64,000 nucleotides of DNA from Elainellaceae cyanobacterium (GTDB taxonomy: Bacteria > Cyanobacteriota > Cyanobacteriia > CAZCXK01). The notes under the pieces were generated by a model. The model was not told the DNA's origin, did not search any database, and saw nothing but the letters and a program-made list of their open reading frames with translations. The first letter of the stretch is position 1; every line of letters begins with the position of its first letter. A program made the translations under genes and the position numbers. The stretch spans positions 67 to 64,066 of the forward strand of contig JBNPEB010000035.1 of assembly GCA_051117335.1 (NCBI GenBank), given 5' to 3'. Below, piece by piece: positions 5,395 to 24,163 of this stretch.

Positions 5395-5547
5395 CTACGC
5401 ATTAGAGCTTGACAGGGCTTGAAGCTTGCGATTCAAGATTGATTGGTAAACTTCGATCAGCTGAGATGCAATGTTGTCCCAGGTGTAGTTTTGCAGGATG
5501 AATTGACGGGCGTGTTCAGCACTGCTGTTCCGGCAGGAATCGCCCAT
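5395..5547 (-). pseudogene. 3' fragment of a GT4 glycosyltransferase (F1)
   Basis: MGD[SCRNSSAE]HARQFILQNYTWDNIASQLIEVYQSI aligns to the C-terminus of 11328-12518 (MGDRAHQFILEYYTWDKIASQLI). Confidence 0.75.
5515..5538. repeat. 24-nt HIP1-inserted element, family B, copy 1
   Basis: GTG[TTCAGCACTGCTGTTCCGGCAGGA]ATCGC; matching empty site GTGATCGC at 6412-6419. Confidence 0.85.
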
Positions 5548-5912
5548 TACCGATTCAGCCATGTTCCCAAAAATTCTACCTGGTTCATCATCTCTTCAGC
5601 GGACTTAATGGCTGCCAGTTTCAACACCCCTTTCATCTGATTGCCAACGGGTTCTGTTTGTTTGGCGAGTATGATTCCTGCATGAGTCTTTCCATTGGCT
5701 AACCAGGTGGAGTGTATTCGATAAAAATCTCGGACATTAAATGAGTAAATCACCCGTTGATTCTCCAGCGCCCACTCTAGTTGCTGTTCATCAGATCGTC
5801 CTTGCATATCCACTTCGAGCGTAGACGTAACATCAGCCCCCCGATTTCGCAAAGCTTGCAGGAGACGCTTACTAGTAGCATCCTCGTCTAAATAGAAGCG
5901 AATGACCGTCAT
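5547..5912 (-). CDS. DUF5615 family PIN-like toxin (VapC45-like)
   Basis: RFYLDED, SDEQQLEWA, RVIYSFNVRDF, HAGIIL motifs; ATGA overlap with the upstream DUF433 gene. Confidence 0.85.
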   Translation of the reverse strand: MTVIRFYLDEDATSKRLLQALRNRGADVTSTLEVDMQGRSDEQQLEWALENQRVIYSFNVRDFYRIHSTWLANGKTHAGIILAKQTEPVGNQMKGVLKLAAIKSAEEMMNQVEFLGTWLNR

Positions 5913-6202
5913 TGGACGGCAGAAGATGCTTGAGCTGAAAGCCTCTCATATTCTGCGGCTTCATTAGCCAAGTCCTGCTCAATGGCTTGCTGATTAGCGT
6001 AGTAATAGGCAAGAGCGGCATGAACTTGAGCCAGCGTTAAATGGCTTTTGTCTGACACAATATCGTCTGCGCTGTACCCCTGTTTATACAGAGCAACAAT
6101 TCGTCGTACAGATGTCCCAGTGCCTGCGACAATGGGTCGTCCATCTTGAATGTCGGAGGATGTTGTAATGAGACTGCCAATGTCAACAAAGGTTTGAGCC
6201 AT
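5909..6202 (-). CDS. DUF433 family antitoxin
   Basis: GRPIVAGTGTSV and LTLAQVHAALAYY motifs. Confidence 0.88.
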   Translation of the reverse strand: MAQTFVDIGSLITTSSDIQDGRPIVAGTGTSVRRIVALYKQGYSADDIVSDKSHLTLAQVHAALAYYYANQQAIEQDLANEAAEYERLSAQASSAVQ

Positions 6203-6294
6203 TGATTGATGCCGGAAAAACTCATCTCAAGTTTAGCGTTTGTTTGATGGCGCGATCGCCCTAAAAAGATCCCAGTCAATATCCCAGGTCAAAC

Positions 6295-6477
6295 TCAAGA
6301 TCCGACGGGTTTTGAAATAGTGGGCTGTTGCTTCAAGATGGATTGATAGACTTCGATGAGTTGGGCGGCGATTTTGTCCCAGGTGTAGTTTTCTAGGATG
6401 AATTGACGGGCGTGATCGCCCATTGCTTTTGCTTCTTCTGGATGTTTCTGGCAGTGGATTAATGCGTTGGCGATCGC
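6295..6477 (-). pseudogene. 3' fragment of a GT4 glycosyltransferase (F2)
   Basis: AIANALIHCQKHPEEAKAMGDHARQFILENYTWDKIAAQLIEVY aligns to the end of 11328-12518; homology starts at HIP1 6470-6477. Confidence 0.8.
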
Positions 6478-6496
6478 CCATGTGCTGATTAACTAA

Positions 6497-6922
6497 CTAT
6501 TTCGGAGGATGCCATCCCACTTCAGTCCAAAGTTTACGAGAGATCACCAACTCAGCACGATTCATCCGAAGTGTGATGATAGAGACTCGACCCACTGTTG
6601 TTTTTCCAAGCATAAGTGAACCGTCAGTACTCCATTCAAAATGGTCAACCCAGGCTTGCATCTGAGGATGAAACAGACGAACATCTTGCTGAGATTGGTC
6701 ATCAAATACAGAAATCCTAGCAGCCTTGTATAGGTTGCAATCCCAACAGGCCAAACACAGATTACGCTTCTCTGTTGTTCCTCCCAACAATTCCGGCACG
6801 ATATGGTCAACGGTCAGGCGAATACCTGAAATGTGTTGTTGAGTTTGGCAATACGCACAACGGGATCTAAACTGGGCGACAACTTCGGCACGAACTCCAT
6901 CTGGAATCCTGGATTTACTCAT
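6497..6922 (-). CDS. HNH endonuclease
   Basis: CAYC..DHIVP..GG..NLCLACWDCN motifs. Confidence 0.9.
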   Translation of the reverse strand: MSKSRIPDGVRAEVVAQFRSRCAYCQTQQHISGIRLTVDHIVPELLGGTTEKRNLCLACWDCNLYKAARISVFDDQSQQDVRLFHPQMQAWVDHFEWSTDGSLMLGKTTVGRVSIITLRMNRAELVISRKLWTEVGWHPPK

Positions 6923-7332
6923 GGAACATCAGCAAGTGAGGATATATCGTGACCTCGTTCAGCCAGAAAAGTCGCCGCCTTAGCCCGAACCATCATAATG
7001 TGGTTAAAATGCTTCGATAATATTTGCACTTGTTCAGATTCTTCTGGGGTCAACCCCTGGCGTTGCTGCTTTTCCAACAACTCCTGCATTAAATCATTTT
7101 CGTCTTCAGAAGCTTGGGATGTAGCCGCATTCCACAACTCTTCATCCGTGAGTAGTGTGAGTTGGTTTAAGCGATCGCCCATATCGGTAGCCAACTCTGC
7201 ATCCGTCATTAACGCAGTATTAATCAGACTAACCGTTTCTTCTTCCAACGGTCGATCCGATTTTTGGGCTAAATCAACCAGCCGTTGATAGATTGAATCA
7301 GGTAATCGTAACGTCAATGTTTGCCAAACCAT
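6919..7332 (-). CDS. RHH-like protein, putative partner/antitoxin of the HNH nuclease
   Basis: TLTLRLPDSIYQRL strand-helix N-terminus; ATGA overlap with the HNH gene. Confidence 0.6.
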   Translation of the reverse strand: MVWQTLTLRLPDSIYQRLVDLAQKSDRPLEEETVSLINTALMTDAELATDMGDRLNQLTLLTDEELWNAATSQASEDENDLMQELLEKQQRQGLTPEESEQVQILSKHFNHIMMVRAKAATFLAERGHDISSLADVP

Positions 7333-7399
7333 AGCCCTATATCTGCATCAATACTCAAATGAGTTTTATTATACCTTGACCCATTGCTGGGGTTTACGC

Positions 7400-7530
7400 C
7401 CTCGTTTTGCCTTCTAACGAACTCATCAAACATAGTAAAAAACTGAGTGGCGATCGCATCCCCAGGTGTAGTGTTCTAGAATGAACTGGCAGGCGCGTTC
7501 AGCACTGCTGTTCCGGTAGGAATCGCCCTC
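7400..7530 (-). pseudogene. 3' fragment of a GT4 glycosyltransferase (F3), frameshifted
   Basis: GD[SYRNSSAE]RACQFILEHYTW then +1 shift to DAIATQ; left boundary approximate. Confidence 0.7.
7498..7521. repeat. 24-nt HIP1-inserted element, family B, copy 2
   Basis: GCG[TTCAGCACTGCTGTTCCGGTAGGA]ATCGC; empty site GCGATCGC at 11439-11446 in the intact GT4. Confidence 0.85.
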
Positions 7531-7543
7531 TTCCCTCATCACT

Positions 7544-7830
7544 TCAGGTTCTAAACGATGCTCGCACCTGAGGATGAAGGCTCGCCCCGGTGCGCCCGGT
7601 CACGATCCACAACATCGATCGCCCGATGTCGCGGGAGACATGCCACAGGGTTTCGTTGGGTTGCTTGGAGGGAATGGGGACGGGGGTAGTGATGATGCCG
7701 CGACTGCCGAAGACAAAGGAAGCAATGGCCCCGTGCGCGACGCATATGAAAGTCGGAGGTGATGAGGTAGACGTGGTGGATGTGGCGATCGCCCAAGTCG
7801 CTGACGAGGGAGGTGAAGTTGGTGACGGTG
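7544..7830 (-). pseudogene. YdcF 3' half, copy 2, frameshifted
   Basis: TVTNFTSLVSDLGDRHIHHVYLITSDFHMRRAR, then an extra G and continuation FVFGSRGIITTPVPIPSKQPNETLW; closely similar to 8862-9488. Confidence 0.8.
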
Positions 7831-7835
7831 TTTTA

Positions 7836-8840
7836 TCAATTGTTGGGCGTACACAACTCCACAATTAGGCTATCAGAATCAATGCAGAGTGATTGGTCAA
7901 TAAGTTCTGCTACGGCCTTATTTCCTTCAATACTCAAATGGACACCATCATGAAAATAGCTTTCAACAACAGATGTTGGCAGATCTGACCAAGCGGCTTG
8001 AGTATCAATAATAGGAATGTTCAACTCTTCGAGAATGGATATAAACTCTTGTTTATATTCTGGAGTAGTTGTTTGAGGAATTAAATCTTCCCGATTAGGA
8101 GTAAAAAGAACGAGTATAGGCGTATTGTTATCAACCTGTGAAATAAGTTCTCTCAAATACTCCATATTTTTTGTAAATTTTGCATCGAGAGCAGAAGTAT
8201 TTAGAGTTTGTGGGGATGACTCAGTGGGTAAAAGTCTTGCCATTCTAGGTAACAGATAACGACTGATAACTTCCTGGGTTGCCAGCAATGGGCGAACATC
8301 TGGGTAGCCTGGATGCGTTCCTACGACTTCACTTGTACTCATCGGTTGATATAAGTCATGAGTCCCGATTTGGAGAATGATTGCATCGCTGTTAAATGTC
8401 CCAAATTTTTTGACATAGCCTAATTGATTACCAATGCCCCATGATCCCGCTGAGGCATTGAGTACTTCTGAGGAGTAATTCGAATCAGTAAAGTGCTCTT
8501 CTAAAACTTCTGAAATAGTGTGCTCATGACTGGTTAAGCTACCGCCATTGAGAACGGAATCACCGACCATCATTAATCGCAATGTCCCCTGTTGTTTGGC
8601 TTCAGTAATGGGTTCAGAGCGTTGAGAATATTGGTTATAGAGAATGCGACGGCCAAAACGTTTGAGATCTTGATTGGGCCGAAACCGATAACCTGTCTCT
8701 GAATCGGTTTGGCTTAACACGGGGTATCCAAATCCAAAGCCGAGTCTTAGAGCAATTTCACCAAATGCAGCAAAAAATATCACGGCAACAAGAACCCATT
8801 GCCAATGGTTGCGGGCAGTCTTCAATAATTTCATTATCAA
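7836..8840 (-). CDS. SGNH/GDSL hydrolase family protein
   Basis: GDS block I, NASAGSWG, GTHD and DGVH motifs; N-terminal TM helix. Confidence 0.88.
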   Translation of the reverse strand: MIMKLLKTARNHWQWVLVAVIFFAAFGEIALRLGFGFGYPVLSQTDSETGYRFRPNQDLKRFGRRILYNQYSQRSEPITEAKQQGTLRLMMVGDSVLNGGSLTSHEHTISEVLEEHFTDSNYSSEVLNASAGSWGIGNQLGYVKKFGTFNSDAIILQIGTHDLYQPMSTSEVVGTHPGYPDVRPLLATQEVISRYLLPRMARLLPTESSPQTLNTSALDAKFTKNMEYLRELISQVDNNTPILVLFTPNREDLIPQTTTPEYKQEFISILEELNIPIIDTQAAWSDLPTSVVESYFHDGVHLSIEGNKAVAELIDQSLCIDSDSLIVELCTPNN

Positions 8841-8861
8841 TCGTGTTAGAAGGTTATCGTG

Positions 8862-9488
8862 TCAGAGTTGAGGATGAAACCTGGCTCCAGTGCGCCCGGT
8901 GATGATCCACAGGATCGAGCGCCCAATGTCGCGTGAGATGTGCCAGAGGGTTTCGTTGGGGTGCTTGGAGGGAATGGCGACGGGGGTAGTGGTGATGCCG
9001 CGACTGCCGAAGACGAAGAAGGCGATCGCCCGTGCGCGTCGCATGTGAAAGTCGGAGGTGATGAGGTAGACGTGGTGAATGCGGCGATACGGGCTGCGCC
9101 CAGGCAAGCCAACGCGAAAGTCGCTGACGAGGGAGGTGAAGTTGGTGACGGTGTCGATGGCGCGACGATCGAGGTGGAGGCGACTTTCGGCAATGGCGGC
9201 GCGTTGAAAGATGGCTTTGGATTCTTGGGTGGGGGCACCGGAAGACACCCAAATGTCTAGATTGGGGTGTTGCTGTGCGAAGAGTGCAGTGAATCTTTCT
9301 CGTTCGGGAATTCCTCCAAGTGTAAGGATGGCTTGAGGAGTGGGGGGGTGGATCTGGGCGAGAATTAGGCGGACGGGAATGAAACTAATGAGAAGGACAA
9401 GGATGGTGATGGTAACGGCAACCCACATTTTGCGATAGATTTTTGGGCGGAGATACATCGAGATTCGGCTGATGAAAATGGTCAGCAT
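8862..9488 (-). CDS. YdcF/DUF218 family protein, copy 3, with an 8-aa insertion
   Basis: DTVTNF and LITSDFHMRRA motifs; VGLPGRSPY segment comes from the 24-nt element. Confidence 0.85.
   Translation of the reverse strand: MLTIFISRISMYLRPKIYRKMWVAVTITILVLLISFIPVRLILAQIHPPTPQAILTLGGIPERERFTALFAQQHPNLDIWVSSGAPTQESKAIFQRAAIAESRLHLDRRAIDTVTNFTSLVSDFRVGLPGRSPYRRIHHVYLITSDFHMRRARAIAFFVFGSRGITTTPVAIPSKHPNETLWHISRDIGRSILWIITGRTGARFHPQL
9089..9112. repeat. 24-nt HIP1-inserted element, family A, copy 1
   Basis: GCGAT[ACGGGCTGCGCCCAGGCAAGCCAA]CGC; empty GCGATCGC at the homologous position 7785-7792. Confidence 0.9.
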
Positions 9489-9540
9489 TCCGCTCTAGTC
9501 TATCTGTTGTGGGGGTTGAGTCACCAGGTATGGGTTTGGA

Positions 9541-10365
9541 TCAATGTTCCTTTGGGTGAGACTGAGAGGTATTAGAAAAATCAGACAGGTCAGCTTCGAT
9601 GAGCTTGATGGAGAGCAGTAGCTCAGCGAGCATTCGCTGAAATGCGTAATACCATCCGCGCCAGCCATCAAGAATGCCGCCCTTGAGGATGAGGCAGTAG
9701 AGCAAAATCACGAAGGGAGCCAGAATTTTTTGCTGTCGAATGCGATCGCCCCAACTCAATTCTTCTAAAGCTGTTTCTTGAAGCTTCTTCACTTCGAGCA
9801 CCATGTAGCGGTCTTGTGCCCAGAGCCAGCGAGAGAGGGGTTTGCGATCGTCGTGATGAATGGGGTTTGTTAAGGATGCTGATTGTCCTTTCACCACTAA
9901 AAGCTGGGTATGTCCGTCATCGATGTAGTGCGTTGGCTTGCCTGGGCGCAGCCCGTCTTGCCTTTTGCGGAAAAGGGCTTGGCGGGGGGGCAAAATGGTT
10001 CCACGAAGGGGTTTGCCAAAGACGCAGTATTTGAAGGGGATGAAGTAACCATCAACGTCTGGGGAGGGGGAGAGGGCTTTTAGTTCATTAATGAGAGCAT
10101 CGGTGAGGACATAATCGGCATCGAGGGAAAGCACCCACTCGGTTTGAACATGGTCAATGCCTGCGTTCCATTGGTTGGCGTGGGTGTCGAACTTTCGTTG
10201 AACGGTTTCGACTTGTGGATAGGTTTTGAGAATGTCGAGGGTGTTATCTGTGCTGAAGCTATCGATAACAACAATGCGATCAGCCCAGGAAATAGGTTCA
10301 AGAGTACGTCTAATGTTATGTGCTTCGTTATAGGTAAGAATTAAAGGTGTGATATTCTGGAGCAT
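9541..10365 (-). CDS. glycosyltransferase family 2 (WaaE/LgtF-like), with an 8-aa insertion
   Basis: ILTYNEA, VIDSFSTD, LSLDADY motifs; 8 extra residues relative to 3847-4645. Confidence 0.9.
   Translation of the reverse strand: MLQNITPLILTYNEAHNIRRTLEPISWADRIVVIDSFSTDNTLDILKTYPQVETVQRKFDTHANQWNAGIDHVQTEWVLSLDADYVLTDALINELKALSPSPDVDGYFIPFKYCVFGKPLRGTILPPRQALFRKRQDGLRPGKPTHYIDDGHTQLLVVKGQSASLTNPIHHDDRKPLSRWLWAQDRYMVLEVKKLQETALEELSWGDRIRQQKILAPFVILLYCLILKGGILDGWRGWYYAFQRMLAELLLSIKLIEADLSDFSNTSQSHPKEH
9933..9956. repeat. 24-nt element, family A, copy 2, in a degenerate HIP1
   Basis: GCG[TTGGCTTGCCTGGGCGCAGCCCGT]CTTGC inside the GT2 gene. Confidence 0.85.
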
Positions 10366-10391
10366 ATTTGATTCTGATATGAGCTGAAAGT

Positions 10392-11252: not shown

Positions 11253-11327
11253 TGCTTTAGATCAGTGTTCCTAATAAGCAAATCGCTTGATTAAATATAA
11301 GTCCTAAAATGTCGGTTGTACTTTGAA

Positions 11328-12518
11328 TTAAATATAGAGATGAGGCAACTGTTTATTTTTGATAATAGCGTCGTAAGTTTTTATTAATTGAGATGCTATT
11401 TTGTCCCAGGTGTAGTATTCGAGTATGAACTGATGGGCGCGATCGCCCATTGCTTTAGCTTCGTCTGGAGTGCTGAGGCAATCAATCAGCGCTTTTGCAA
11501 TGGCGTCGGCATCGATATCGACAACGTGGGCAGCTTTCGCAAGCTTAGCTTCTGGGAAGTTGCATCCGGTAGTTATCACACAGGGAAGTCCTGAGGCCAT
11601 TCCTTCTAACATAGACATGCTAAACCCTTCAGAATAGGAGGGCGCGACGTAGAGATTTGCAGCGGCGAGGGCTGCATATTTGAGGTCTCCCGTGAGCATT
11701 CCGGTAAAGGTGACGGCATCCAGACAATTTGCTTTAGAAAAGTATTCTTTAGCTGTTGGGAGAAAGCCAATATTATCTTGTCCGGCAACGATGAGATGAG
11801 CCTTGGGAAACTGTTGATAAACAAGACCGAAGGCTTGAGCCAGGAGGTCAAGCCCTTTTTTGGGGTCAATGCGGCCTAAAAAGAGGATGAGCTGTTTACC
11901 TGATGTGGTTGGAAACCTCTGGAAGAAGAGATCGGGTGAGGGCAGAGTTTGAAAGTCTTCGGCGTGGATACCGTTTGGAATTTTGGTCAATGGGGGCTTC
12001 AGCTTAAGAGGTTGGATGCCTTCAGCTTCTTGAGTGGCAAGGACGTGGATGGTGCTGGCTGTTTGTAGGGTTGGCTGTTCGAGAAGTCGATAATAGAACT
12101 GCTTTTTCCAGGCTTTGTAGGATAAAGCCCAGGGTTCTAACATGCCACGGGGAGTAATGATGTAGGGGATATTTTGCCAGCGACAAAACCAGTGAGCAAG
12201 GGTGATGTTTAGGGAGAAGATAGCGTTGGTGTGAACCAGGTCGTAGTCTTTAATGTGATTCCAGAGCCAGGTCAGAAGGGATGGGCTAAGTTTATAGTCG
12301 CTGAAGGGCAGATAAGGAAAGTATTGGATTCGATACTGAGGGTAAGTAATCCATTGTTTGAGGGGAACGTTGAGAGCAACGGAGGTGTCGGCGTTGGTCG
12401 TTACGATATCGATGGAAATGCCGTGTTGTCCGGTGGCTTTTGCGAGTTCGAGGATGCTTTTGGAGGGGCCACCATAGCTAAGACCAACGGCTGGAAGAAT
12501 AATGAGTATTTTCATCAA
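11328..12518 (-). CDS. glycosyltransferase family 4
   Basis: FLGRIDPKKG and PSYSEGFSMSMLEGMASG motifs. Confidence 0.92.
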   Translation of the reverse strand: MMKILIILPAVGLSYGGPSKSILELAKATGQHGISIDIVTTNADTSVALNVPLKQWITYPQYRIQYFPYLPFSDYKLSPSLLTWLWNHIKDYDLVHTNAIFSLNITLAHWFCRWQNIPYIITPRGMLEPWALSYKAWKKQFYYRLLEQPTLQTASTIHVLATQEAEGIQPLKLKPPLTKIPNGIHAEDFQTLPSPDLFFQRFPTTSGKQLILFLGRIDPKKGLDLLAQAFGLVYQQFPKAHLIVAGQDNIGFLPTAKEYFSKANCLDAVTFTGMLTGDLKYAALAAANLYVAPSYSEGFSMSMLEGMASGLPCVITTGCNFPEAKLAKAAHVVDIDADAIAKALIDCLSTPDEAKAMGDRAHQFILEYYTWDKIASQLIKTYDAIIKNKQLPHLYI

Positions 12519-12529
12519 TAGAAAAGCAA

Positions 12530-13156
12530 TTACTGATGAGGCTTAAAGAAGAACGCGGTATCGGTTACGCCATTACTTGTCCAGATTCTTCGCCAACCCT
12601 GTGTTTTTTCTAAAAATACTTTCCAATGCTCTGATGCAGGTTCCATTTGATGGGTTCTCGAATTTGGCGAGTAAGAGTGACAAGGCAAGAACCAGTTTGC
12701 ATTATCCAGAACTATAAATCCTCCACTCTTGACCTTACTTATAGCTTTCAGAGCACATAAATCACGCTGAAAGTAACCATCTACTAATGCAAAATTAAAA
12801 CTTTCATCCTCAACACTATTGACTACATTGACGTATTCTTGAGGGTCAACTATCAAGTGGTAGTCTCAATTACTCAGTTTTACCTCTTTTGCCTTTTGCG
12901 TTACATGATTATACCAATCGGTGTTTGACTCAATGCTCATGAGATGGTGAATGCGTTGAGCGAACCAAATCGTGCTACGACCAGATCCCCACTCTAGACC
13001 GACATCATCTTTTTGAAGGTAAGTAGAGAGAATGCTAATAGCTTGCGATGTTAACCAAGGTTCATCAGGATGAGTGTTCTCATAAATTGCTAAAGCTATT
13101 CGATTATAAATATACTTAGGACTCCAGTGATTAATTTTTCGCATTCTTTCATTCAC
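12530..13156 (-). pseudogene. class I SAM-dependent methyltransferase split by an in-frame TGA
   Basis: LEWGSGRST motif in the 5' ORF, LVDG..R and LDNA in the 3' ORF; both in one frame across TGA at 12866-12868 (SN*DYHL). Confidence 0.8.
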
Positions 13157-13162
13157 CTATAT

Positions 13163-14359: not shown

Positions 14360-14491
14360 GAAATACCAACTTTGACTTAGTTTATGCTGTTTAACGTGTT
14401 TTCTATTTAATGTGTTTTTGCTAGTTTTGAAATATCTATCATCAAAAGTTTAGAAGAAGTAGATGTAGATAAAAAAACAGAGTTCAACTCA

Positions 14492-15856
14492 TTAATTCCA
14501 AGTGCGTCGGTCAATCACCCATCGACGCTTACCTGCTCGATTAGTTTGCAGATCCGTTACATAATTAAAGGGTGCATCGGAGAAGAACGAATGAACTTGA
14601 CCTAACTTATGCCGAATATTTTGTTCTAAATCAGGATGTATTTCTTTATTTACAATCAATGAAAACTCGGGACCATCATCATTTAGTATGAGTTGTACAT
14701 TAAATACTGAAGGTTCATCCTTAAAACAATGTACAAGGGCAACACTATGAATACTAGTGCCATCAGATAAGGTAATCATGTCATTTACGCGCCCTTCTTG
14801 CTCATCAAAAGCAACTACTAGGCCAAACTCGTCATGCTCTATTCCCGTGATAATATCCCCCTGTTTGTAACGAATCAAAGGTACATAACGTTTATAGAGG
14901 GTAGTAACCAAAGCAGCGCCCCGATTTAGGGACTCAAGAGAACCTTCTGTTTCCAGAATATTTAATTCAGGAAACAACGTATAAGGTGAATCATCAATCT
15001 TAAAGCCGACATGCCCAAAATCTACACCACCAAATTCTTGCACAATTGGGCATCCAAACACGGAACGTAAGAGATTAAATGTATCTGAACGTGGCGGGGG
15101 TTCAGCACAAGGCATAACAAATTTTACTCCGGCTTGCCTTAATGCTTTATGAAAATCTGGAGTATACCGGCATAATAAATCTAAGAGAGCAGCATAGCCG
15201 ATTAATCCTGCCGGTCGAATACGGATAATCTCCTGAGCTATTTGAAGCGCCTTTTCAGGATCAAGAGTATAAGCATCAAAGCGATGATAACCAGCTATCC
15301 AGTCTTTGGCTTTCCTAAGCGTATGATTGTAATAACGTCGCCATCCAGAACCTAATAAATGAGCATGTCCCCAAACTAAAACGAGTTGATTGTCTAGTGT
15401 ATAGCCAAGACGAATCCAAGGTACTAGCTTTGCGATTCTAAGTAAGGCTGAATTATGTCGCCATTCCCCTATTTGCAAAGGTTGGCCTGTTGAACCAGCA
15501 GTTGAGGTGTAACAGTCTGGTGGACCTGAAAATCTATGAAATTGTGCCTGTTTTTCCTTTAGAGTTATCCTATCTAAAATTGGAATGTGATAAAAATCTT
15601 CCCAAGATTTGATCTCTTGTGGCGCTTTGCCTTGAGCAACTAGACTTTGATAGTAAGGTACATCTGTAATACAATCCTGCCAAATCCGACGCAGTTTTTT
15701 TAATTGATTTGAGCGTTCAATATTATCAATCTTTGGTTGAAGTTGCACATTCCATTTTTGAGCTGCATCTAATTGAGATCGGAGTGGTAGCAACCTAGTG
15801 TTTCGCAGAAACATAAATATTGAAAAAATTAACAACTCGAAGGCAAACACAAACAT
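14492..15856 (-). CDS. phenylacetate-CoA ligase family (CapK-like) protein
   Basis: TAGSTGQP P-loop-like motif, QEFGGVDFG, PLIRYKQGD, EGRVND. Confidence 0.8.
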   Translation of the reverse strand: MFVFAFELLIFSIFMFLRNTRLLPLRSQLDAAQKWNVQLQPKIDNIERSNQLKKLRRIWQDCITDVPYYQSLVAQGKAPQEIKSWEDFYHIPILDRITLKEKQAQFHRFSGPPDCYTSTAGSTGQPLQIGEWRHNSALLRIAKLVPWIRLGYTLDNQLVLVWGHAHLLGSGWRRYYNHTLRKAKDWIAGYHRFDAYTLDPEKALQIAQEIIRIRPAGLIGYAALLDLLCRYTPDFHKALRQAGVKFVMPCAEPPPRSDTFNLLRSVFGCPIVQEFGGVDFGHVGFKIDDSPYTLFPELNILETEGSLESLNRGAALVTTLYKRYVPLIRYKQGDIITGIEHDEFGLVVAFDEQEGRVNDMITLSDGTSIHSVALVHCFKDEPSVFNVQLILNDDGPEFSLIVNKEIHPDLEQNIRHKLGQVHSFFSDAPFNYVTDLQTNRAGKRRWVIDRRTWN

Positions 15857-15893
15857 TTTGACTTTATATCGCTATCAATTTAATAAAATGAAT

Positions 15894-17153
15894 TTACATA
15901 CTACGATAAAGTCCTAAAACCTTAGCCTTTTTAACTTTCGCATATAGAAGAGCTGGACCGAGGAAAGCTACGATCTTTGGCCAAGTCATAAAAAAGCGAT
16001 CAGTACTGTGGGTAATAGATTCTAATGCTCCAGCAAAAACTAGCATCAGTAAAACTTGTGCAATGAAATGCCCTTGATTTGCGGCCCTAGAGAAACTTCT
16101 CATGAGATAAGCAATCAACAAAAACTTAACTGCACCGAAATACCAAAAAGACTCAAATGCATCAGACATTCCTGTATGCGTTGTTCCCGTATGAGGTATA
16201 TGACCAAATTCAAGCAATGCTGCTGGGTCTTGAGGTAGCATCAGACCTTGTTTTGTATCTTCTCCAATCCATTGACCAGGCACATAGAGTCTTATAAAGG
16301 AATTCCAGTGGCTAAGTCCAAAATCAAAATTTCCGCGTCGATCAAATGCTTCGATATTGTATGTAGCGTTTCGAAGTTCCAGACCACCTTTCGTAAAGAT
16401 TTCACGCAGATTACCAACATAATCAATTTGCGTGGCAGCAGACAAACCAGAGAAATCTTCACCAATAACAACACTTCGATAGTCACCAATGCTATTAATC
16501 CACAACGTACCTATCACTAGAATGCCAGCAATAAAAGCTCTGGGGGGCAACTTTCGATAACGAAACCACAATGCCAGACCAATAATGATTAATAGTTCTA
16601 TAGCAGATCTACGACGCCCCTGCATGACGATGCGATCAAAATAGAAAATTAAGTTGTAGCCAATGATCATGAGTGACCATTGCGAAGGCTTATGGATATG
16701 GCTGACTATCGCAAGCACCAGGCCAAAAGTTAAAAGACTTGAAAAAAACGCAAATATTGTAATTGGGCCACTCCATCTAGTTCCCGCATCGGGACTGAGT
16801 AAGCTGACTTGATAGAAAAAATAACTCCCAGCCAGAGAACTTATGGCTGCTGCAATCAGTAAACGTCGATGACTAAAAGGCCAGTTTAGAGCATTGAAAG
16901 GACGTTTATTAAGTGAGTGACCTATCCAGCAAGACCAGACGCATAGTAGCGTCATGAAAAGAGCTTTGTTGATAGCACCTGGGGGTAAACTGAGTGAGTT
17001 TATACTCAAGCCAATGAACTGAGGAATTACCCAACCAGAAAAAACTGCTGCAGCCAAGAAGGGATATTGTAATAGGTTCTTTTTATCTTTAAAGCCCCAT
17101 AGTAGAAGTGTCAGGCAAGAACCAATTAGACCTAAAAGCAATATCAAAGTCAT
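15894..17153 (-). CDS. probable Wzy-type polysaccharide polymerase
   Basis: About ten hydrophobic segments, GRR and R..YN motifs, located in a polysaccharide cluster. Confidence 0.65.
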   Translation of the reverse strand: MTLILLLGLIGSCLTLLLWGFKDKKNLLQYPFLAAAVFSGWVIPQFIGLSINSLSLPPGAINKALFMTLLCVWSCWIGHSLNKRPFNALNWPFSHRRLLIAAAISSLAGSYFFYQVSLLSPDAGTRWSGPITIFAFFSSLLTFGLVLAIVSHIHKPSQWSLMIIGYNLIFYFDRIVMQGRRRSAIELLIIIGLALWFRYRKLPPRAFIAGILVIGTLWINSIGDYRSVVIGEDFSGLSAATQIDYVGNLREIFTKGGLELRNATYNIEAFDRRGNFDFGLSHWNSFIRLYVPGQWIGEDTKQGLMLPQDPAALLEFGHIPHTGTTHTGMSDAFESFWYFGAVKFLLIAYLMRSFSRAANQGHFIAQVLLMLVFAGALESITHSTDRFFMTWPKIVAFLGPALLYAKVKKAKVLGLYRSM

Positions 17154-17170
17154 AGTTGTGATGAGTATCT

Positions 17171-18421
17171 TTAGCTGGCAGAATACATGACTGCTTGTTT
17201 AAGGGTTTCCAAAGCAGTTTGCTGGCTTTGAACTAAACAGTTCTGTAAAAGATTAACTGTTTCCTCATCCAAAGCACTGTCATAAAAACAGAGCAAGGCA
17301 TCACGAAGAGCTGGGGAGTCGCGAATGGGGACTATCCATTTCCTTAAGCTCTCATAGTTAGAGATGATAGAACCTGCATGATCGGTAGTAATGACAGGTA
17401 AGCCATGTTGCAGCGCCTCATAAGTGACCATCGCCGATCCTTCACAAATCGAGGGAAGTACAAATACATCTGCCCATTGATAAAGTGCTGCCATGTCAGA
17501 GCGCGGTACACGACCTAAAAACTGGCATACATCAGAATATCTATGAGTATTTTCATGCTTTATTTCTATCGTTCCGGCCACTTTACAAATAAATGGTATT
17601 TGTCCTTTAAGTTTTTGGAGCGCTTCTAATAAATAAGGAATTCCCTTTCGTAAGCCCACAGAACCAGCAAATAGAATATGTAGTCCATCCTTTCGCTTTT
17701 TCCAAGGAGAGCCAAACTCTTTAATAAAAGAAGTTTCAGCTTTAAGTTTCCCTAAAGGAACAACAGAGATTTTTTCAGGTTTCACACCTCTAGCTCTTAA
17801 AGAATCCTTGACGAAATATGAACCACAGATAATATGGTCTGCCAAATCTTGTTCCTGCTGCTCTCGCTCAGCAATCTCTACGTCTGCTTCTGTCAAGCTA
17901 ATGTCGCGAGATGCCCAAACAGGCCAAAGAGCCATCTCTTCTTGCAGAAGTTGATAGTAATAGCTACGCTCTGCAAGGGTCTGGTCTAGGATGCATCGCA
18001 ATCCTTGTTCTTTTGCATAGCGAAATAGTTCCAGGCAAGCGCCATTAAAGCCATAGACTGTATTGGCTTCGCCTAACCCATGTTGGATAATTCGATGACA
18101 AAATGATTTCCCTGCTTTCAGACAAATAGATGATACATTATCACTTTTTGAAAATCTTAGATTCTTTGCATATTGGTAGCCAAGCCATGGAAATTGGATA
18201 ACTTTTGCAGTATCAAGTTTCGGTTCATATCGGTTACTAGCCTTCTTGAGAAAGGTTGGTAAGGAATCAATCCCGTCTAATTTTCTAAGTAATATAAATG
18301 GCCAACTATTACCTGCATAGAAGTCTGTATGGAGAGTGTCAAGAATTTCCCATTGATGGAATAAAGTCGGTTCTTGATAATGTTTTCTAGCGCCAAGCTG
18401 AGCAACTAGTATGTTGATCAT
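17171..18421 (-). CDS. glycosyltransferase family 4
   Basis: FAGSVGLRKG and LPSICEGSAMVTYEAL motifs. Confidence 0.9.
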   Translation of the reverse strand: MINILVAQLGARKHYQEPTLFHQWEILDTLHTDFYAGNSWPFILLRKLDGIDSLPTFLKKASNRYEPKLDTAKVIQFPWLGYQYAKNLRFSKSDNVSSICLKAGKSFCHRIIQHGLGEANTVYGFNGACLELFRYAKEQGLRCILDQTLAERSYYYQLLQEEMALWPVWASRDISLTEADVEIAEREQQEQDLADHIICGSYFVKDSLRARGVKPEKISVVPLGKLKAETSFIKEFGSPWKKRKDGLHILFAGSVGLRKGIPYLLEALQKLKGQIPFICKVAGTIEIKHENTHRYSDVCQFLGRVPRSDMAALYQWADVFVLPSICEGSAMVTYEALQHGLPVITTDHAGSIISNYESLRKWIVPIRDSPALRDALLCFYDSALDEETVNLLQNCLVQSQQTALETLKQAVMYSAS

Positions 18422-18507
18422 TTTTACTTTATCTCTTGGTTATAGAGTAATTTTGATAGAGCCTTAATCTCATGTTTAAGATATCTCTAAATCGGATATC
18501 TAGGAAT

Positions 18508-19746
18508 TTATTCAAGCTTATTGAAAAGAAAAATTCTTGTTAATAGCAACATAGTAGCTAGCATATAGCTTGCAGATAAAGCAATTCCAAGACCAATTAA
18601 AGGATTGCTATATAGTTTAAGAAAAACTAAAAGTGAACAAAATGCGAATCCAAAATATTGCCCACTGCGTCCTAGTAACATCAATATATGCATCTTCCCC
18701 TTAGCAATAAAATATGATTTAAGCAGATTAAACAGAGTAGCACTTAATATGTAGCCATTCATAGAGAAGAATATTGCTACCACTGGTCGCCATACTTCTC
18801 CAAATATCATAGGAACTAATAAAGGAATCCCAAGTGCCATCAATACTATTGCTAAAGTAAGGAATCCAAATATTACCTTCAAACTTTTAATCAAAAATGA
18901 TTTTTGCCCATCAGCAGGATTTCGATGGCTAAAATAATTAATAGCCATTCGTTGTGAAAATGGTTGTAAAAACTGATGAGGTAGGATTGCAAGACGTTGA
19001 GCTTGGAAAAAATAACCTGCTCCTGTCTCTCCTGAAAAAATCCCTACAGTTAATATTACAAGCCGTCCAAATGAGCTTTCTAAAAAACCATCGAGCCAAA
19101 ATGCTCGAACTTGCTTGAAAAGTTCTTGCCAATCCCTGAGTTTAAGCCATCGTAATGGAATAGGTTGTATTCCACGTATGTACTTCAATCCTAGGATCAA
19201 GCTTCCTTGACGGACAAGCTCACGTGCATACAAGACAATTGAGCCTATTCCAAGTAATGCCCCTATTACAGCGAATATATGACCTGAGGAATGTGCTATC
19301 GTTTCTAATAAACTTAAATTCTTATATCGAAAGTTACGTTCATATAAGTTGATTTGCATTGATATCCAGTTCGTGGACAACGAACTTACCAAAAGTAAGG
19401 AAGCTTTTATATCAAGTTTATTGATTAAATATAGGATAGTTGAAGCAGCTATCAAGCCAACAAGGTTTTGCACAACATTTGCAGCTGCATACAAACTCAA
19501 TTTATCTTTTAATTCATCTTTTGGGGTTCTTAAGACAACGGTTCCGATAGGGATACTAATTATTGATTGAGCTAAACCAATATTAGCCATAACAATTGCA
19601 AAGCGACCGAAATCCTCAGGTAAAAGTATTCTAACTAATACAAGATTAGCTAAAAATGCTGTTGCCGCCTGAAAAACTGCTCCGCTCATCATCCATGCTG
19701 CATGACGGGCAATACTGCTTTGAACGCCTTTGAATCGTTTTCTCAA
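18508..19746 (-). CDS. Wzx-type oligosaccharide flippase
   Basis: LVRILLPEDFG motif and multiple TM helices. Confidence 0.85.
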   Translation of the reverse strand: MRKRFKGVQSSIARHAAWMMSGAVFQAATAFLANLVLVRILLPEDFGRFAIVMANIGLAQSIISIPIGTVVLRTPKDELKDKLSLYAAANVVQNLVGLIAASTILYLINKLDIKASLLLVSSLSTNWISMQINLYERNFRYKNLSLLETIAHSSGHIFAVIGALLGIGSIVLYARELVRQGSLILGLKYIRGIQPIPLRWLKLRDWQELFKQVRAFWLDGFLESSFGRLVILTVGIFSGETGAGYFFQAQRLAILPHQFLQPFSQRMAINYFSHRNPADGQKSFLIKSLKVIFGFLTLAIVLMALGIPLLVPMIFGEVWRPVVAIFFSMNGYILSATLFNLLKSYFIAKGKMHILMLLGRSGQYFGFAFCSLLVFLKLYSNPLIGLGIALSASYMLATMLLLTRIFLFNKLE

Positions 19747-19804
19747 ATAATGTTACTCCCTTAAGTATATTTATATAAAATTTGCAATTCAAAAAAGAAG
19801 TAAT

Positions 19805-20929
19805 TCAGCTTAGATGTATCGCAACTATGCTATCGTTTTTATTCTTATCAACACTGATTAATTCCACAAGAGTTCTTTCAATCCATTTCCTGAATAAGTG
19901 AAACTCCGATTCAATCTTAGTTAAGTCAGCTACATAAGCACCAGTTCTGGGATCGCAAGATATTGGGGCACGCTCAAAAATCTGTGGTCGTCTGTCGTTA
20001 GACTTAATATAATTTGAATAAAAAACTACAGGTTTTCCTGCAGCTAAAGTCACAACACATGAATGAACTCTATCTGAAATGGTAAGAGAAGTTCCCTGAT
20101 ATAAGCTTAAGTACGACAATGGGTTGAATGAGAGATATGAATTAGGCTTTGAAAAATCAACATTTATAAAGCTCGTCCCTATTCCATGATTAGGTCTGAT
20201 TATTTCATAAGAATCATAGCTGGAAGGAACATTTCTTAAAAATTCAAAATGCCTTAAATATTTCCAAAATAAACTATATTTTTCAAGCCTATAAGGCTGA
20301 ATATTAATATTCACTATTTCTTCATTCTCGATTTTTATGTAAATGTTCGGTTCAAAGTTTTTGTAGAATGAGAGAGTGATATATTTGTTGCTGCTTTTCA
20401 ATTTTGGCAATGGGCATAAAATATATGAGTAAAAAGCGCAGCATAAGCCATCATAGCAATTCTTAATAAATGGATTTAGTAAATCAAAAGTGTACCTATC
20501 CCTGCTCGATAATCCTAGTGGAGGATATTCTTGAAGGAAAGAAATAATTTTACTTAACTCGTGAGAATTTTCTTCTAAGCTAGAGTGAGAACTAAGGATA
20601 AGATAATCTGCTCCTTTCCTTTTAATCTCCTCGATAAAACTAGCATAATTTTCTAGGAAGCCAGCCCTGAATATTGGGCCAGAAAAGATATATATGTTTC
20701 CATCATAAATTTTCGATATGTTAAAAGCATTGTTCTTAAAGCGTTTTTTAGACGGGCTATTCAAACGAAATGCACGATTGATAGGACCATCTATCATGGC
20801 TACATTCGAGACATTTCCATACATTGACTTAAGCAAGTAATATATGGGGAACTGATAAAACCCGTCTCCTACATTGTTCCAAGTTGAGTTTTCGATTAAG
20901 ATGCTCTTCTGCTCTACGCATTTAGGCAT
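19805..20929 (-). CDS. polysaccharide pyruvyltransferase family protein
   Basis: NVGDGF N-terminal motif, SSRDRYT, ISDRVHSCV. Confidence 0.7.
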   Translation of the reverse strand: MPKCVEQKSILIENSTWNNVGDGFYQFPIYYLLKSMYGNVSNVAMIDGPINRAFRLNSPSKKRFKNNAFNISKIYDGNIYIFSGPIFRAGFLENYASFIEEIKRKGADYLILSSHSSLEENSHELSKIISFLQEYPPLGLSSRDRYTFDLLNPFIKNCYDGLCCAFYSYILCPLPKLKSSNKYITLSFYKNFEPNIYIKIENEEIVNINIQPYRLEKYSLFWKYLRHFEFLRNVPSSYDSYEIIRPNHGIGTSFINVDFSKPNSYLSFNPLSYLSLYQGTSLTISDRVHSCVVTLAAGKPVVFYSNYIKSNDRRPQIFERAPISCDPRTGAYVADLTKIESEFHLFRKWIERTLVELISVDKNKNDSIVAIHLS

Positions 20930-21307
20930 TTTTAGTTCTCCTGATTTATAGCTCTTACCGAGTCAAAAACTTTTATCAAAAGTCTGTGAAATCCAAAAGG
21001 GCAATAGAAGCATTGCCTAGACTTTGATAAGAAATCAACATGACCTATTAGTGCAGTACTTAGTAGCAACATGTTTTATCCGCTCTGCTCCGCAGATAAG
21101 TATGATATGAACTTCACCCATACGGCCTTTCATCCCATACAGCAAAACGCCTCTCATCATCTCTGTTCAACCTTTTGAATCAGCCATCAGGACAATGGGC
21201 GATACGCACACAGCGCAGGTAAATTAACGCCACAATTCACCCGCAACATTCTTAGTTCTCATCCCAAAAATCTAAGGATGTCGCCATTCCGTCTCCATGA
21301 ACACGAC

Positions 21308-21334
21308 AAAAAAAGAGTGAGCACTGCTCACTCT
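21308..21334 (-). terminator. intrinsic terminator in R1
   Basis: AGAGTGAGC-agt-GCTCACTCT stem followed by a T-run on the minus strand, downstream of the PIN gene. Confidence 0.75.
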
Positions 21335-21499
21335 CTAATCAAGAGGTTTGATGATGACCCTAACCATGCTCCATCAGCGCATGACCCAAAATCTAGATTA
21401 AGAGCCATAGCGTTCCAAACAGAAAACGGACACCCGTCAACCGAGACAATAAACCTGTAGACAGTCCTGACCCCATCGAAACCGTGAAGATTCAGGGCG

Positions 21500-21523
21500 T
21501 TGGCTTGCCTGGGCGCAGCCCGT
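21500..21523. repeat. 24-nt HIP1-inserted element, family A, copy 3
   Basis: GCG[TTGGCTTGCCTGGGCGCAGCCCGT]ATCGC at the right edge of R1. Confidence 0.9.
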
Positions 21524-21546
21524 ATCGCCCCTTCAAAACCCACCTT

Positions 21547-21936
21547 TCACAGTAACTTTCCATCAAGCTCCTCATACTTGGAAAACTGACGATCAACTGA
21601 CATTAAATCGCAATCGTGAGCGATCGCCGTTGCAATAATCAATCGATCTTGTGGATCTCGGTGATGCTCTGGAAGGTCTACCGCAATACTTGCAATTTGT
21701 GGAGTGATAGACAGGAGAGTAACATCAGAACCCTCAAGTGCTCTTTCAAACCAGGTTATTCGATCAATCGACAACTCGATGCGCCCATGACCGTCTAGCC
21801 AAGCAACCTCAAAACAACTAATAGCAGACACTGCCACAGCATCGCTCGACTCAATCTGTTCCTTTCGCGCTGCTCCAAGCTTCGCAATGTCTTCGTTAAT
21901 CCACCACAGCCAGATGTGAGTATCCAAAACAATCAT
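21547..21936 (-). CDS. VapC-like PIN toxin (PIN1)
   Basis: MIVLDTHIWLW, SAISCFE, HRDPQDRLIIATA motifs; ATGA overlap with the upstream antitoxin. Confidence 0.9.
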   Translation of the reverse strand: MIVLDTHIWLWWINEDIAKLGAARKEQIESSDAVAVSAISCFEVAWLDGHGRIELSIDRITWFERALEGSDVTLLSITPQIASIAVDLPEHHRDPQDRLIIATAIAHDCDLMSVDRQFSKYEELDGKLL

Positions 21937-22214
21937 TGAGGAAGATTCCAATCACTTTCCGGAATCGTATCAATGATGTCGCCTAAAGTTGTCATCTTTC
22001 CCGCAATATCAGAGTGAGGAGCACGTCGCTTAGTTGTTGGGGCACTCACAGTGTCAATCACCAGAAAAATAGCCTCAAACTGCTTATTCGGTGGTAACTT
22101 AGGGACATGCTTTAAGTTCCCCGATGCATCTGTTTCCAGCATCAACCGTTCTGCATCCATTGCTGAGTCTCCCATTAACCTGGCTTCTCTACGCTTATAG
22201 CACAGTCCCAGCAA
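21933..22214 (-). CDS. putative VapB-like antitoxin AT1
   Basis: Small gene coupled to PIN1; true start probably MGDSA or MDAER. Confidence 0.7.
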   Translation of the reverse strand: MLGLCYKRREARLMGDSAMDAERLMLETDASGNLKHVPKLPPNKQFEAIFLVIDTVSAPTTKRRAPHSDIAGKMTTLGDIIDTIPESDWNLPQ

Positions 22215-22300
22215 TCATTCACACAGACGCAATACACACCACGTGTAGATAGGTCACGCCACGGATTACTCGCAACTTTCTTAGCTCTCATCATGCACAC

Positions 22301-22560
22301 CTGAGGATGCCGCCATTCCGTCTTCATGAACACGACGAAAAAAAAGAGTGAGCACTGCTCACTCCTTGATAAAGAGGTTTGATGATGACCCTAACCCTGC
22401 CCCATCAGCGCATGACCCAAACTCTAGATTAAGAGCCGTAGAGTTCCAAACAGAAAGCGTACACCACTCAACCTAGACAATAAACCTGTAGACAATCCTA
22501 ACCCCATCGAAACCATGAAGATTTAGGGACTTTTACTCGCCTGGGCATCACCCGTATCGC
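22301..22560. repeat. non-coding repeat R, copy 2, ending in a degenerate family A element
   Basis: Alignment to R1; GCCTGGGC..CCCGTATCGC at 22539-22560; terminator-like hairpin 22338-22364. Confidence 0.88.
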
Positions 22561-22604
22561 CCCTCTTGGCCTCCACTCACCCTACACACGACTTGGCAAA
22601 CTTT

Positions 22605-22661
22605 ACGAAGAAAAAAGGGTTGTGGGCGCGCAACGCGCGCCCACAACCCTTTTTTCTTCGT
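22605..22661. terminator. perfect 27-bp inverted repeat, probable bidirectional terminator / REP-like palindrome
   Basis: ACGAAGAAAAAAGGGTTGTGGGCGCGC-aac-GCGCGCCCACAACCCTTTTTTCTTCGT. Confidence 0.75.
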
Positions 22662-22742
22662 TGCAATTGGAGAAGTTTGCCAAGTCGTACCTACAAACTC
22701 TGAGGGTGAATCATCAGGATGGTGTTATCAGAAGAGAGGGCG

Positions 22743-22766
22743 TTGGCTTGCCTGGGCGCAGCCCGT
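22743..22766. repeat. 24-nt HIP1-inserted element, family A, copy 5
   Basis: GCG[TTGGCTTGCCTGGGCGCAGCCCGT]ATCGC. Confidence 0.9.
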
Positions 22767-22798
22767 ATCGCTCTATATCTTTCCTTGAATCCCACCAC

Positions 22799-23881: not shown

Positions 23882-23985
23882 TTGGAAACGAATATACAGT
23901 GCCTATTCGAAATGTTAGCTGATCTCAGAGCCTCCAATCGACTCCATAATGCACCCGCATTCGTCTTATGTCTCATCACGAACAC

Positions 23986-24163
23986 CTAAGGATGTCGCCA
24001 TTCCGTCTCCATAACCACGAAAAAAAAAGAGTGAGCACTGCTCACTCTTCAATCAAGAGGTTTGATGATGACCATGACCATGCTCCATCAGCGCATGACC
24101 CAAAATCTAGATTAAGAGCCGTAGAGTTCCGAACAGAAAACGTACAGCTCTCAACCTAGACAA
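23986..24163. repeat. non-coding repeat R, copy 3
   Basis: Alignment to R1/R2; hairpin 24027-24049 plus minus-strand T-run, directly downstream of 24170-24544. Confidence 0.88.

Follow-up and report, generated by a model that had tools for sequence, protein, structure and literature searches.

The 64-kb window analysed here, by which we mean the whole stretch of 64,000 nucleotides from an Elainellaceae cyanobacterium, contains short inserts in HIP1, the octamer palindrome GCGATCGC. The inserts belong to two 24-nt families, A (ACGGGCTGCGCCCAGGCAAGCCAA) and B (TCCTGCCGGAACAGCAGTGCTGAA), together with a newly found eighth 24-mer, C (ACGCACACAGCGCAGGTAAATTAA), which is identical to A at 14 of 24 positions. 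Very probably, A, B and C are protein-less micro-insertions of the type of small dispersed repeat 5 (SDR5) that target HIP1, have moved recently and sit as passengers at the junctions of gene modules. They are new sequence families of a known kind, found in Elainellaceae. The original prediction, in which A and B share a three-way-junction fold and filled HIP1 sites serve as recombination points like minimal attC sites, was thus half right: a site-specific process at HIP1 is supported, and the attC-like role and the three-way junction are not.

A is present in the window as four exact copies and one decayed copy, and B as two copies one base apart. None of 100 shuffles reproduced the copies of either family, and chance occurrence is not expected. 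Every copy has the same polarity, with a GCGAT-like 5′ flank and a CGC-like 3′ flank. HIP1 itself occurs 76 times in the window (GC content 47%), versus about 1.5 times expected. Because HIP1 is so dense, the inserts do not stand out by spacing: counts of GCGAT-N(k)-CGC over the 64 kb show no enrichment of k = 24 by count alone. A search of the rest of the window for a local template of A, B or C returned only 10-11-mers, which is the chance level. Filled and empty sites, and the other features discussed below, are collected in Table 1.

Table 1. Inserts, their empty counterparts and R modules in the 64-kb window (GT2 and GT4, glycosyltransferase families; F1-F3, fragments of a GT4 gene tail)
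Feature	Position	Strand	Description
B1	5512..5543 (24-mer 5515-5538)	-	GCGAT + B + CAC; start of GT4-tail fragment F1, 3 nt past the DUF5615 stop
Empty HIP1	6252..6259		Empty where L010 has an A-like 24-mer; reciprocal polymorphism
Empty B site	6412..6419		Fragment F2, GCGATCAC; CAC variant in common with B1
B2	7495..7526 (24-mer 7498-7521)	-	GCGAT + B with one change + CGC; in GT4-tail fragment F3
Empty A1 site	7785..7792		Uninterrupted HIP1 in a DUF218 gene fragment
A1	9084..9115 (24-mer 9089-9112)	+	GCGAT + A + CGC; in frame, 8 codons, intact DUF218 gene 8862-9488(-)
A2	9930..9961 (24-mer 9933-9956)	-	GCAAG + A + CGC; in frame, intact GT2 gene 9541-10365(-), adds DGLRPGKP
Empty B site	11439..11446		Uninterrupted HIP1 in the intact GT4 gene 11328-12518(-)
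C	21199..21230 (24-mer 21204-21227)	+	GCGAT + ACGCACACAGCGCAGGTAAATTAA + CGC; R1 left edge, inverted relative to A3
R1 core	21231..21496	-	Conserved non-coding module with a terminator-like hairpin
A3	21497..21528 (24-mer 21500-21523)	-	GCGAT + A + CGC; R1 right edge, 18 nt past the PIN1 stop
C'	22229..22260 (insert about 22234-22256)	+	Decayed 23-nt counterpart of C, GCAAT + ACACACCACGTGTAGATAGGTCA + CGCC; R2 left edge
R2 core	22261..22528		Second copy of the R core
A5	22527..22560 (24-mer 22532-22555)	-	Decayed A, ACGGGTGATGCCCAGGCGAGTAAA, flanks GCGAT and AGT; R2 right edge, positional homologue of A3
A4	22740..22771 (24-mer 22743-22766)	-	GCGAT + A + CGC; 27 nt past the PIN2 stop
R3 core	23941..24163		Third copy of the R core

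Paralogous sequences within the window reveal the inserts as such. In the tail of the intact GT4 gene the sequence is ATGGGCGATCGCGCC, and in fragment F2 it is ATGGGCGATCACGCC, while fragments F1 and F3 hold B exactly between GCGAT and C(A/G)C. Similarly, a DUF218 gene fragment reads GGCGATCGCC at the position that A1 occupies in the intact DUF218 gene, a third DUF218 paralogue (approximately 3515-3538) is also without the A1 insert, and a GT2 paralogue is without exactly the 24 nt of A2. Comparison of filled with empty sites for A1, A2 and B1/B2 places the insertion bond at GCGAT^CGC with zero target bases duplicated. The bond can only lie there, because the first and last bases of the insert that adjoin the HIP1 halves mismatch HIP1. 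The positions, copies and exact bond originally given for A and B are confirmed. The gaps against empty paralogues and orthologues are exactly 24 nt, and the unit size thus falls within the approximately 21-27 nt of SDR5-type repeats.

A has no stop codon in any of its six frames, and the reading frame varies among copies, so it is a DNA-level element rather than a peptide module. The same absence of stops, together with a unit of 24 nt, explains how copies survive within genes as additions of eight residues.

Two related genomes provide orthologous loci for comparison. One, which we call L010, is a locus in NCBI assembly GCA_964465285.1 with 84% nucleotide identity to the window over the GT2 and DUF218 genes; the other, L012, is a JGI contig that is 82% identical to the window. 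L010 is empty at three sites that are filled in the window: it has a perfect HIP1 at the A1 site (L010 5227), reads GCGAGCGC at the A2 site and has an uninterrupted HIP1 where B1 lies in the window. It nonetheless holds an A-like copy of its own, AAGGGCTGCGCCCAGGCAAGCCAA, in a GT4 tail, at the position where the window has an empty HIP1. L012 reads ACGATCGC at the A2 site, and none of its 20 HIP1 sites is filled. Moreover, the residues DGLRPGKP, which A2 adds to the GT2 protein, are missing in all of the eight closest GT2 proteins (69-88% identity). Since the window and L010 each have filled sites that are empty in the other, insertion took place after divergence and in both lineages. The insertions are therefore precise, recent and independent in related genomes.

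Family A is also dispersed well beyond this locus. We searched 185,579 representative genomes (GTDB) and JGI metagenomes for a combined pattern of A or B with HIP1 flanks. The pattern matched three loci in the representative genomes and one in the metagenomes, and all four are A. In Elainellaceae and other cyanobacterial loci from metagenome-assembled genomes (MAGs), A lies in a kinase-WD40 gene (twice), a TsaB-like gene, a GDSL lipase, an alpha/beta hydrolase and a GT4 tail. Six copies in these other genomes lie in frame within intact genes and without rearrangement, as do A1 and A2 in the window. On one Elainellaceae MAG contig (L002:1858-6521), four A-like copies occur within 5 kb: two in a Ser/Thr kinase-WD40 gene, one in the TsaB-like gene and one in the GDSL lipase. 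The two copies in the kinase-WD40 gene are in inverted orientation, one in the linker and one between WD40 repeats. The loops of the L002 copies vary (TGC, TAG, TCC, TAC), and three of these copies retain the first stem. In the alpha/beta hydrolase, a HIP1 near the gene start is filled by A in two different genomes (L001:2773-2796, L003:1417-1440, L004:10589-10612); the flanks are visibly diverged and A differs at only one of 24 positions, so that this is either an old insertion that has been kept intact or a site that has been hit repeatedly.

A soil metagenome (X1) contributes the largest number of contexts: 49 of its contigs match only the 24-mer A and its HIP1 halves and then diverge, and the depth of matching rises and falls exactly at 21495-21530. 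A is thus a true dispersed repeat family present in many unrelated contexts. B had no match in the GTDB genomes, JGI metagenomes, plasmids, viral contigs or the metagenome runs X1-X3. Among 72,556 plasmids, A and B had only chance matches in non-cyanobacteria, and viral contigs yielded no genuine copy of either. One viral contig with a 23/24 match to A (L009:3124-3147) was judged a chance match: the contig has a GC content of 64% and no HIP1, no HIP1 halves surround the match, and such a match occurs at the rate expected for the pattern.

The host of A, B and C is, on protein and DNA identity, a cyanobacterium of the family Elainellaceae. The isocitrate dehydrogenase encoded in the window is 97% identical to a protein from an Elainellaceae MAG, with runners-up at no more than 87%, and a 15-kb core contig of that relative (L013) has 88-90% DNA identity to the window. 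A, B and C are all absent from that core contig, which also has no indel of at least 12 nt relative to the window. Exact look-ups of three proteins encoded in the window matched no record.

These properties closely recall those of SDR5, which was reportedly described by Elhai, Kato, Cousins, Lindblad and Costa in 2008 as a small dispersed repeat of Nostoc punctiforme and other heterocystous cyanobacteria. SDR5 is 21 nt long and is inserted in HIP1 in heterocystous cyanobacteria (PMC13756078, PMC4390886, PMC5861425), between the third and fourth bases of the octamer, and Elhai suggested that directed cutting of HIP1 could account for its insertion (PMC4390886). We recovered SDR5 empirically by scanning 200 kb of the N. 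punctiforme plasmid pNPUN01 for inserts between GCGAT and CGC, and identified it by the published description. The sequence recovered, GCGAT^GCCTACGGCGGGCTACGCCTA^CGC, is 21 nt long and has a two-hairpin layout; a variant, GTCTACGACAGGCTGCGCCTA, carries a compensatory change in the first stem. Together with its HIP1 flanks, SDR5 is found in 137 places on 52 plasmids, all from Nostocales.

A and B share with SDR5 the HIP1 target and the very same bond: the position between the third and fourth bases is GCGAT^CGC on the other strand, as the empirical copies confirm. They further share the absence of target duplication, a fixed polarity, the lack of coding capacity and in-frame survival inside genes. 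On the other hand, A and B are 24 nt long rather than 21 nt, and they do not align with SDR5; only the 9-mer GGCTGCGCC is common to A and one SDR5 variant. SDR5 occurs on 52 Nostocales plasmids, whereas A and B are absent from the 72,556 plasmids searched, and the hosts of SDR5 are Nostocaceae and other heterocystous cyanobacteria, whereas A and B are in Elainellaceae (A copies also in an Elainellaceae MAG).

The shared architecture is clearer for B than for A. Both 24-mers had been drawn as two mini-hairpins ending in AA. Two adjacent 3-bp hairpins can be drawn in about 6% of random 24-mers, and we also applied a strict layout, in which a hairpin starts at the bond and is followed by a spacer of 0-2 nt, a second hairpin and a tail of at most 3 nt. 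B has this strict layout, which 0.5% of random 24-mers have, and matches SDR5 exactly: in both, two mini-hairpins are separated by a spacer of 1 nt and followed by a 2-nt tail that ends in A. A, however, fits only loosely, in a relaxed form of the layout that 1.8% of random 24-mers have. A genuine regularity of layout is present. The N. punctiforme repeats SDR4 and SDR6 are said to have a predicted fold like that of SDR5 despite little sequence similarity, and reportedly are not specific to HIP1. They resemble the present case in that several sequence families have one architecture, as do A, B and SDR5. Since no SDR-like repeats have been found outside the Nostocaceae in the literature (PMC5861425), A, B and C are new families of the SDR5 kind in another cyanobacterial order, and extend HIP1-targeted micro-insertion beyond that family.

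A longer insert is indicated at the R1 module. C on the plus strand and A3 on the minus strand lie within 38-nt inverted arms that are 71% complementary and that surround the 264-nt R1 core; C, the core and A3 together form a 322-nt unit between HIP1 halves. One contig of metagenome X1, which is 88% identical to the 3′ end of the PIN1 gene, follows the window to 21194, continues with the seven bases GTGACCG and then passes straight to 21524. It reads CAGGACAGTGACCGATCGCCCCTT, in which the outer flanks are joined across a HIP1-like octamer; C, the R1 core and A3, 322 nt in all, are absent as a single block. By a rough estimate, the chance of such a match at this exact place is about 1e-6. Because the R1 core is bounded by C and A3 and is absent as a block from a relative, 24-mers at the two HIP1 halves can bound a longer single insert. 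On this sequence comparison, the 322-nt unit appears to be the strongest point for a link between the 24-mers and the movement of modules.

The three copies of the R core are 85-91% conserved, and the core includes, on the gene strand, a terminator-like hairpin (AGAGTGAGCAGTGCTCACTCT) with a T run. The 24-mers at the ends of the modules have diverged further than the core (57-71%): R2 retains decayed versions of both ends and R3 neither. No Rfam family was found anywhere in the window, R included. The left flank of C had no similarity to the upstream regions of the antitoxin genes. We considered the R core as an attC-like hairpin and rejected it, as its consensus fold is the terminator only and there is no covariation.

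This unit raises the question of whether a miniature transposon that targets HIP1 has the 24-mers as its terminal inverted repeats, recognised by a transposase; R with its C, core and A3 would be an example, and the solo copies would be one-ended or minimal derivatives. The inverted arms flanking the core and the absence of the whole unit from the relative's HIP1-like site speak for such an element, and Elhai and colleagues reportedly found some SDRs within minitransposons in 2008. There is also a general resemblance to miniature inverted-repeat transposable elements (MITEs) and repetitive extragenic palindromic (REP) sequences, in that the 24-mers are non-autonomous, dispersed and hairpin-forming, and the unit of C, R1 core and A3 looks MITE-like: it has the arms and an apparent empty site. 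However, the unit has no target duplication, and its core is not repeated in X1-X3; in metagenomes holding A, the depth over 21222-21443 is 0. R3 is without both ends, and the ends of R2 are barely complementary. In L002, what lies between the two inverted A copies is WD40-coding sequence, not a transposon, and solo copies vastly outnumber composites. The solo 24-mers also differ from MITEs in being about ten times smaller, in causing no target duplication and in having no terminal inverted repeats of their own; measured against the MITE hallmarks of terminal inverted repeats, a target-site duplication, a length of 100-500 bp and multiple copies, they fall short throughout. We thus regard the miniature transposon as an unlikely explanation.

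The second alternative is the one in the original prediction, namely that filled HIP1 sites are minimal attC-like sites at which a structure-recognising recombinase exchanges toxin-antitoxin and glycosyltransferase-tail modules of both arrays. The positions on which it was built are correct: inserts lie at the starts of F1 and F3, at the right edges of R1 and R2 and just past the PIN2 stop. Ends of homology blocks are also closer to HIP1-type sites than expected, with 9 of 34 ends no more than 10 nt from such a site versus 7% expected (p = 4e-4). An enrichment of filled over empty sites at these ends was likewise found within the window, where six of nine filled sites and two of 21 empty sites lie within 10 nt of a block end (Fisher p = 0.003, a naive value that counts R1/R2 and F1/F3 as independent despite their shared ancestry). 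The excess is confounded by location: seven of the nine filled sites are in non-coding or pseudogene DNA, while most empty sites are in working genes. Filled sites flank the R1 core, and likewise the R2 core, at either end, and B has the defined two-hairpin layout described above.

The junctions themselves, however, do not depend on the inserts. In L010, the junction of F1, which consists of the DUF5615 end, TAATGG, HIP1 and the GT4 tail, is present with its HIP1 empty. In L012, an HNH module is flanked on one side by a HIP1 where the GT4 gene ends and on the other by a GT4-tail fragment whose start coincides exactly with an empty HIP1. Empty HIP1 sites in the window likewise mark the start of F2 (6470-6477) and the end of F3 (7450-7457). 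Since relatives have these junctions with an uninterrupted HIP1, the 24-mers came later, as passengers, and are not attC-like sites, and the junctions, from these comparisons, appear to be older than the inserts. A1, A2 and the six copies elsewhere, which are inside intact genes without rearrangement, also argue against filled sites as recombination points. So do the folding and covariation results given below, which offer no support for a recognised structure, and the absence of an integrase domain among the open reading frames (ORFs) of 3.9-24 kb. Integron attC sites do resemble the 24-mers in lying at cassette ends and being recognised as folded single strands, which was the basis of the analogy. 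However, they are imperfect palindromes of 55-140 nt with conserved R and L boxes that are used by the integrase IntI, whereas A and B have only 24 nt, and a direct reading of A and B found no GTTRRRY / RYYYAAC pair. The attC-like role is thus very unlikely. The broader claim of an enzyme acting at HIP1 fares better in one respect: one bond, one polarity and filled and empty states that differ in both directions do support some site-specific machinery, but recognition of a three-way-junction fold is without support.

The alternative in which nothing is mobile, the 24-mers being ancestral and the empty sites being products of deletion, can draw on nothing more specific than the formal symmetry of insertion and deletion for any single pair of sequences, and is effectively refuted: every such event would need to have recreated a perfect palindrome, and at four different loci, the same 24-mer is found in at least 49 unrelated contexts, all close GT2 homologues are without the segment, and the filled and empty states are reciprocal between the window and L010.

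A better reading of the edges than an attC-like role is that module junctions tend to be HIP1 sites, as in three genomes, and that HIP1 in dispensable DNA then collects 24-mers. At the spot between the GT4 tail and the GT2 gene (window 5395-7864; L010:3263-4013; L012:4190-5244), different small modules are present in the three related genomes: a DUF433 module in L010, an HNH gene with a small partner on the opposite strand in L012, and both, stacked, in the window. After each of these modules comes a GT4-tail fragment with its start at a HIP1 site, so that the junctions are bounded by HIP1, filled or not. The copies at edges thus seem to sit there because edges are HIP1 sites in non-coding DNA. 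Two things that had been merged are thereby separated, namely the junctions between gene modules that HIP1 provides and the 24-mers, which settle there later.

As a separate observation, L010:3863-3897 contains a 10-nt tandem duplication, TTAATGGGCG followed by TTAATGGGCG, which ends exactly at the GCG^ATCGC bond in the empty HIP1 of the F1-like junction. This duplication could be a repair scar of cutting at the bond that receives 24-mers.

How SDR5-type inserts such as A, B and C would move can be outlined only tentatively. A length of 24 nt cannot encode any machinery, and the machinery must therefore act in trans. The restriction enzymes AsiSI/SgfI cut at the bond GCGAT^CGC, and PvuI cuts at the same bond within the core CGAT^CG. 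The authors who described SDRs in 2008 are said to have favoured an RNA template. One possible mechanism, which we consider less likely than not to be correct, is nicking and copying at HIP1. A HIP1-specific and strand-specific nick would be made at GCGAT^CGC, a bond of the PvuI/AsiSI type. The T at the exposed 3′ end would then prime synthesis, with a copy of an already filled site, in RNA or single-stranded DNA, as the template. Through its split HIP1 halves (ATCGC and GCG), this copy would pair with the two sides of the target, and the halves would provide 5-nt and 3-nt homologies for priming and re-joining. Such a mechanism would explain the fixed polarity, the absence of target duplication, the exact ends and the 322-nt stretch acting as one unit.

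A more general form of this idea, which builds on the 322-nt unit and which we consider rather unlikely, is that the split HIP1 halves are the only ends needed, so that anything between GCGAT and CGC could be copied into another HIP1. The cargo could then be a 24-mer, the 322-nt unit or whole HIP1-bounded toxin-antitoxin modules such as those in the window, L010 and L012. If this were true, HIP1 together with a nicking and copying activity would be a cassette system without an integrase, in which the 24-mers would be the smallest and fittest passengers, and the 30-year-old puzzle of HIP1 would gain a function in gene exchange.

Several results weigh against the interpretation of A, B and C as recently mobile SDR5-type inserts, or remain unexplained by it, and the first of these concern structure. 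The GCG/CGC stem that was thought to close a three-way junction in both A and B is not evidence for this fold, because it is available to any insert in the palindrome. For B as single-stranded DNA, the most stable structure is indeed the three-way junction (-5.7 kcal/mol), but equally good folds occur in 26 of 200 shuffles. A as single-stranded DNA does not form the proposed junction and has a weaker fold than its shuffles (z about +1), and its second hairpin requires a 2-nt loop. As RNA, neither A nor B stands out from shuffles. Folding energies are thus not better than those of shuffles. Among eight A-like sequences, 90% of cells pair, there are two double changes, both in C, and the covariation score is reached by 28 of 500 shuffles. 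The three-way junction supposedly shared by A and B accordingly finds neither thermodynamic nor covariation support; of the structural claims made earlier, what stands is the predicted junction as the best DNA structure of B and the first hairpin of the decayed A, which is indeed kept, as GGGT/GCCC with a G-T pair.

Further points on the same side concern individual copies. B has two copies in all data searched, both in paralogous GT4-tail flanks, and a single insertion followed by gene conversion remains compatible with them. Either B entered the same HIP1 in two paralogues, as their sequences suggest, or it moved between these by conversion. The elements of B1 and B2 are identical at 23 of 24 positions and their flanks at 32 of 44, and the filled F1 is nearest to the empty F2 (40/44, with the CAC variant in common); the contrast in identity between element and flanks argues for two events. 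A3 equals consensus A, while its positional homologue A5 differs at seven of 24 positions although their flanks are 91% alike. This contrast requires re-insertion or conversion and is left unexplained. The empty site of the 322-nt unit is provided by a single metagenome contig, the left side of which has only 27 nt. Nicking and copying is a proposal with no enzyme, template or intermediate in evidence, and it leaves unexplained the local clustering of copies, nine within 17 kb in the window and four within 5 kb in L002. All nine inserts in the window, including the decayed ones, are confined to 5.5-22.8 kb, and outside 4.5-24.3 kb none of 64 HIP1 sites is filled (Fisher p 3e-6 to 2e-4, depending on which events are taken as independent).

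How SDR-type repeats move has been a question since 2008, and the purpose of HIP1 since the 1990s. The locus described here offers clean natural experiments on both: four HIP1 sites with reciprocal states in two genomes, two unrelated families with one bond and one polarity, one family that is identical across genomes, and a 322-nt stretch that acts as a single insert. In addition, the eight-residue additions in working genes matter for annotation and for alignments of protein families.

The inserts lie within an exopolysaccharide cluster at 3.9-24 kb, which encodes GT2 and GT4 glycosyltransferases, an FkbM methyltransferase, a flippase, a pyruvyl transferase, a GDSL lipase and DUF218 proteins. 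Small toxin-antitoxin-like modules break up this cluster: a DUF433/DUF5615 pair, a small partner ORF with an HNH gene, and two PIN pairs. Between 12 and 21 kb, the GC content is 39-41% and HIP1 is absent, compared with about one HIP1 per 0.8 kb elsewhere; the HIP1-free polysaccharide genes at 12000-21000 are probably DNA acquired from a donor without HIP1. Finally, between A5 and A4, which are in direct orientation, an imperfect palindrome of about 100 nt at 22588-22688 contains a perfect 27-bp inverted repeat (22605-22631 / 22635-22661), and may be a hairpin MITE or a two-way terminator.

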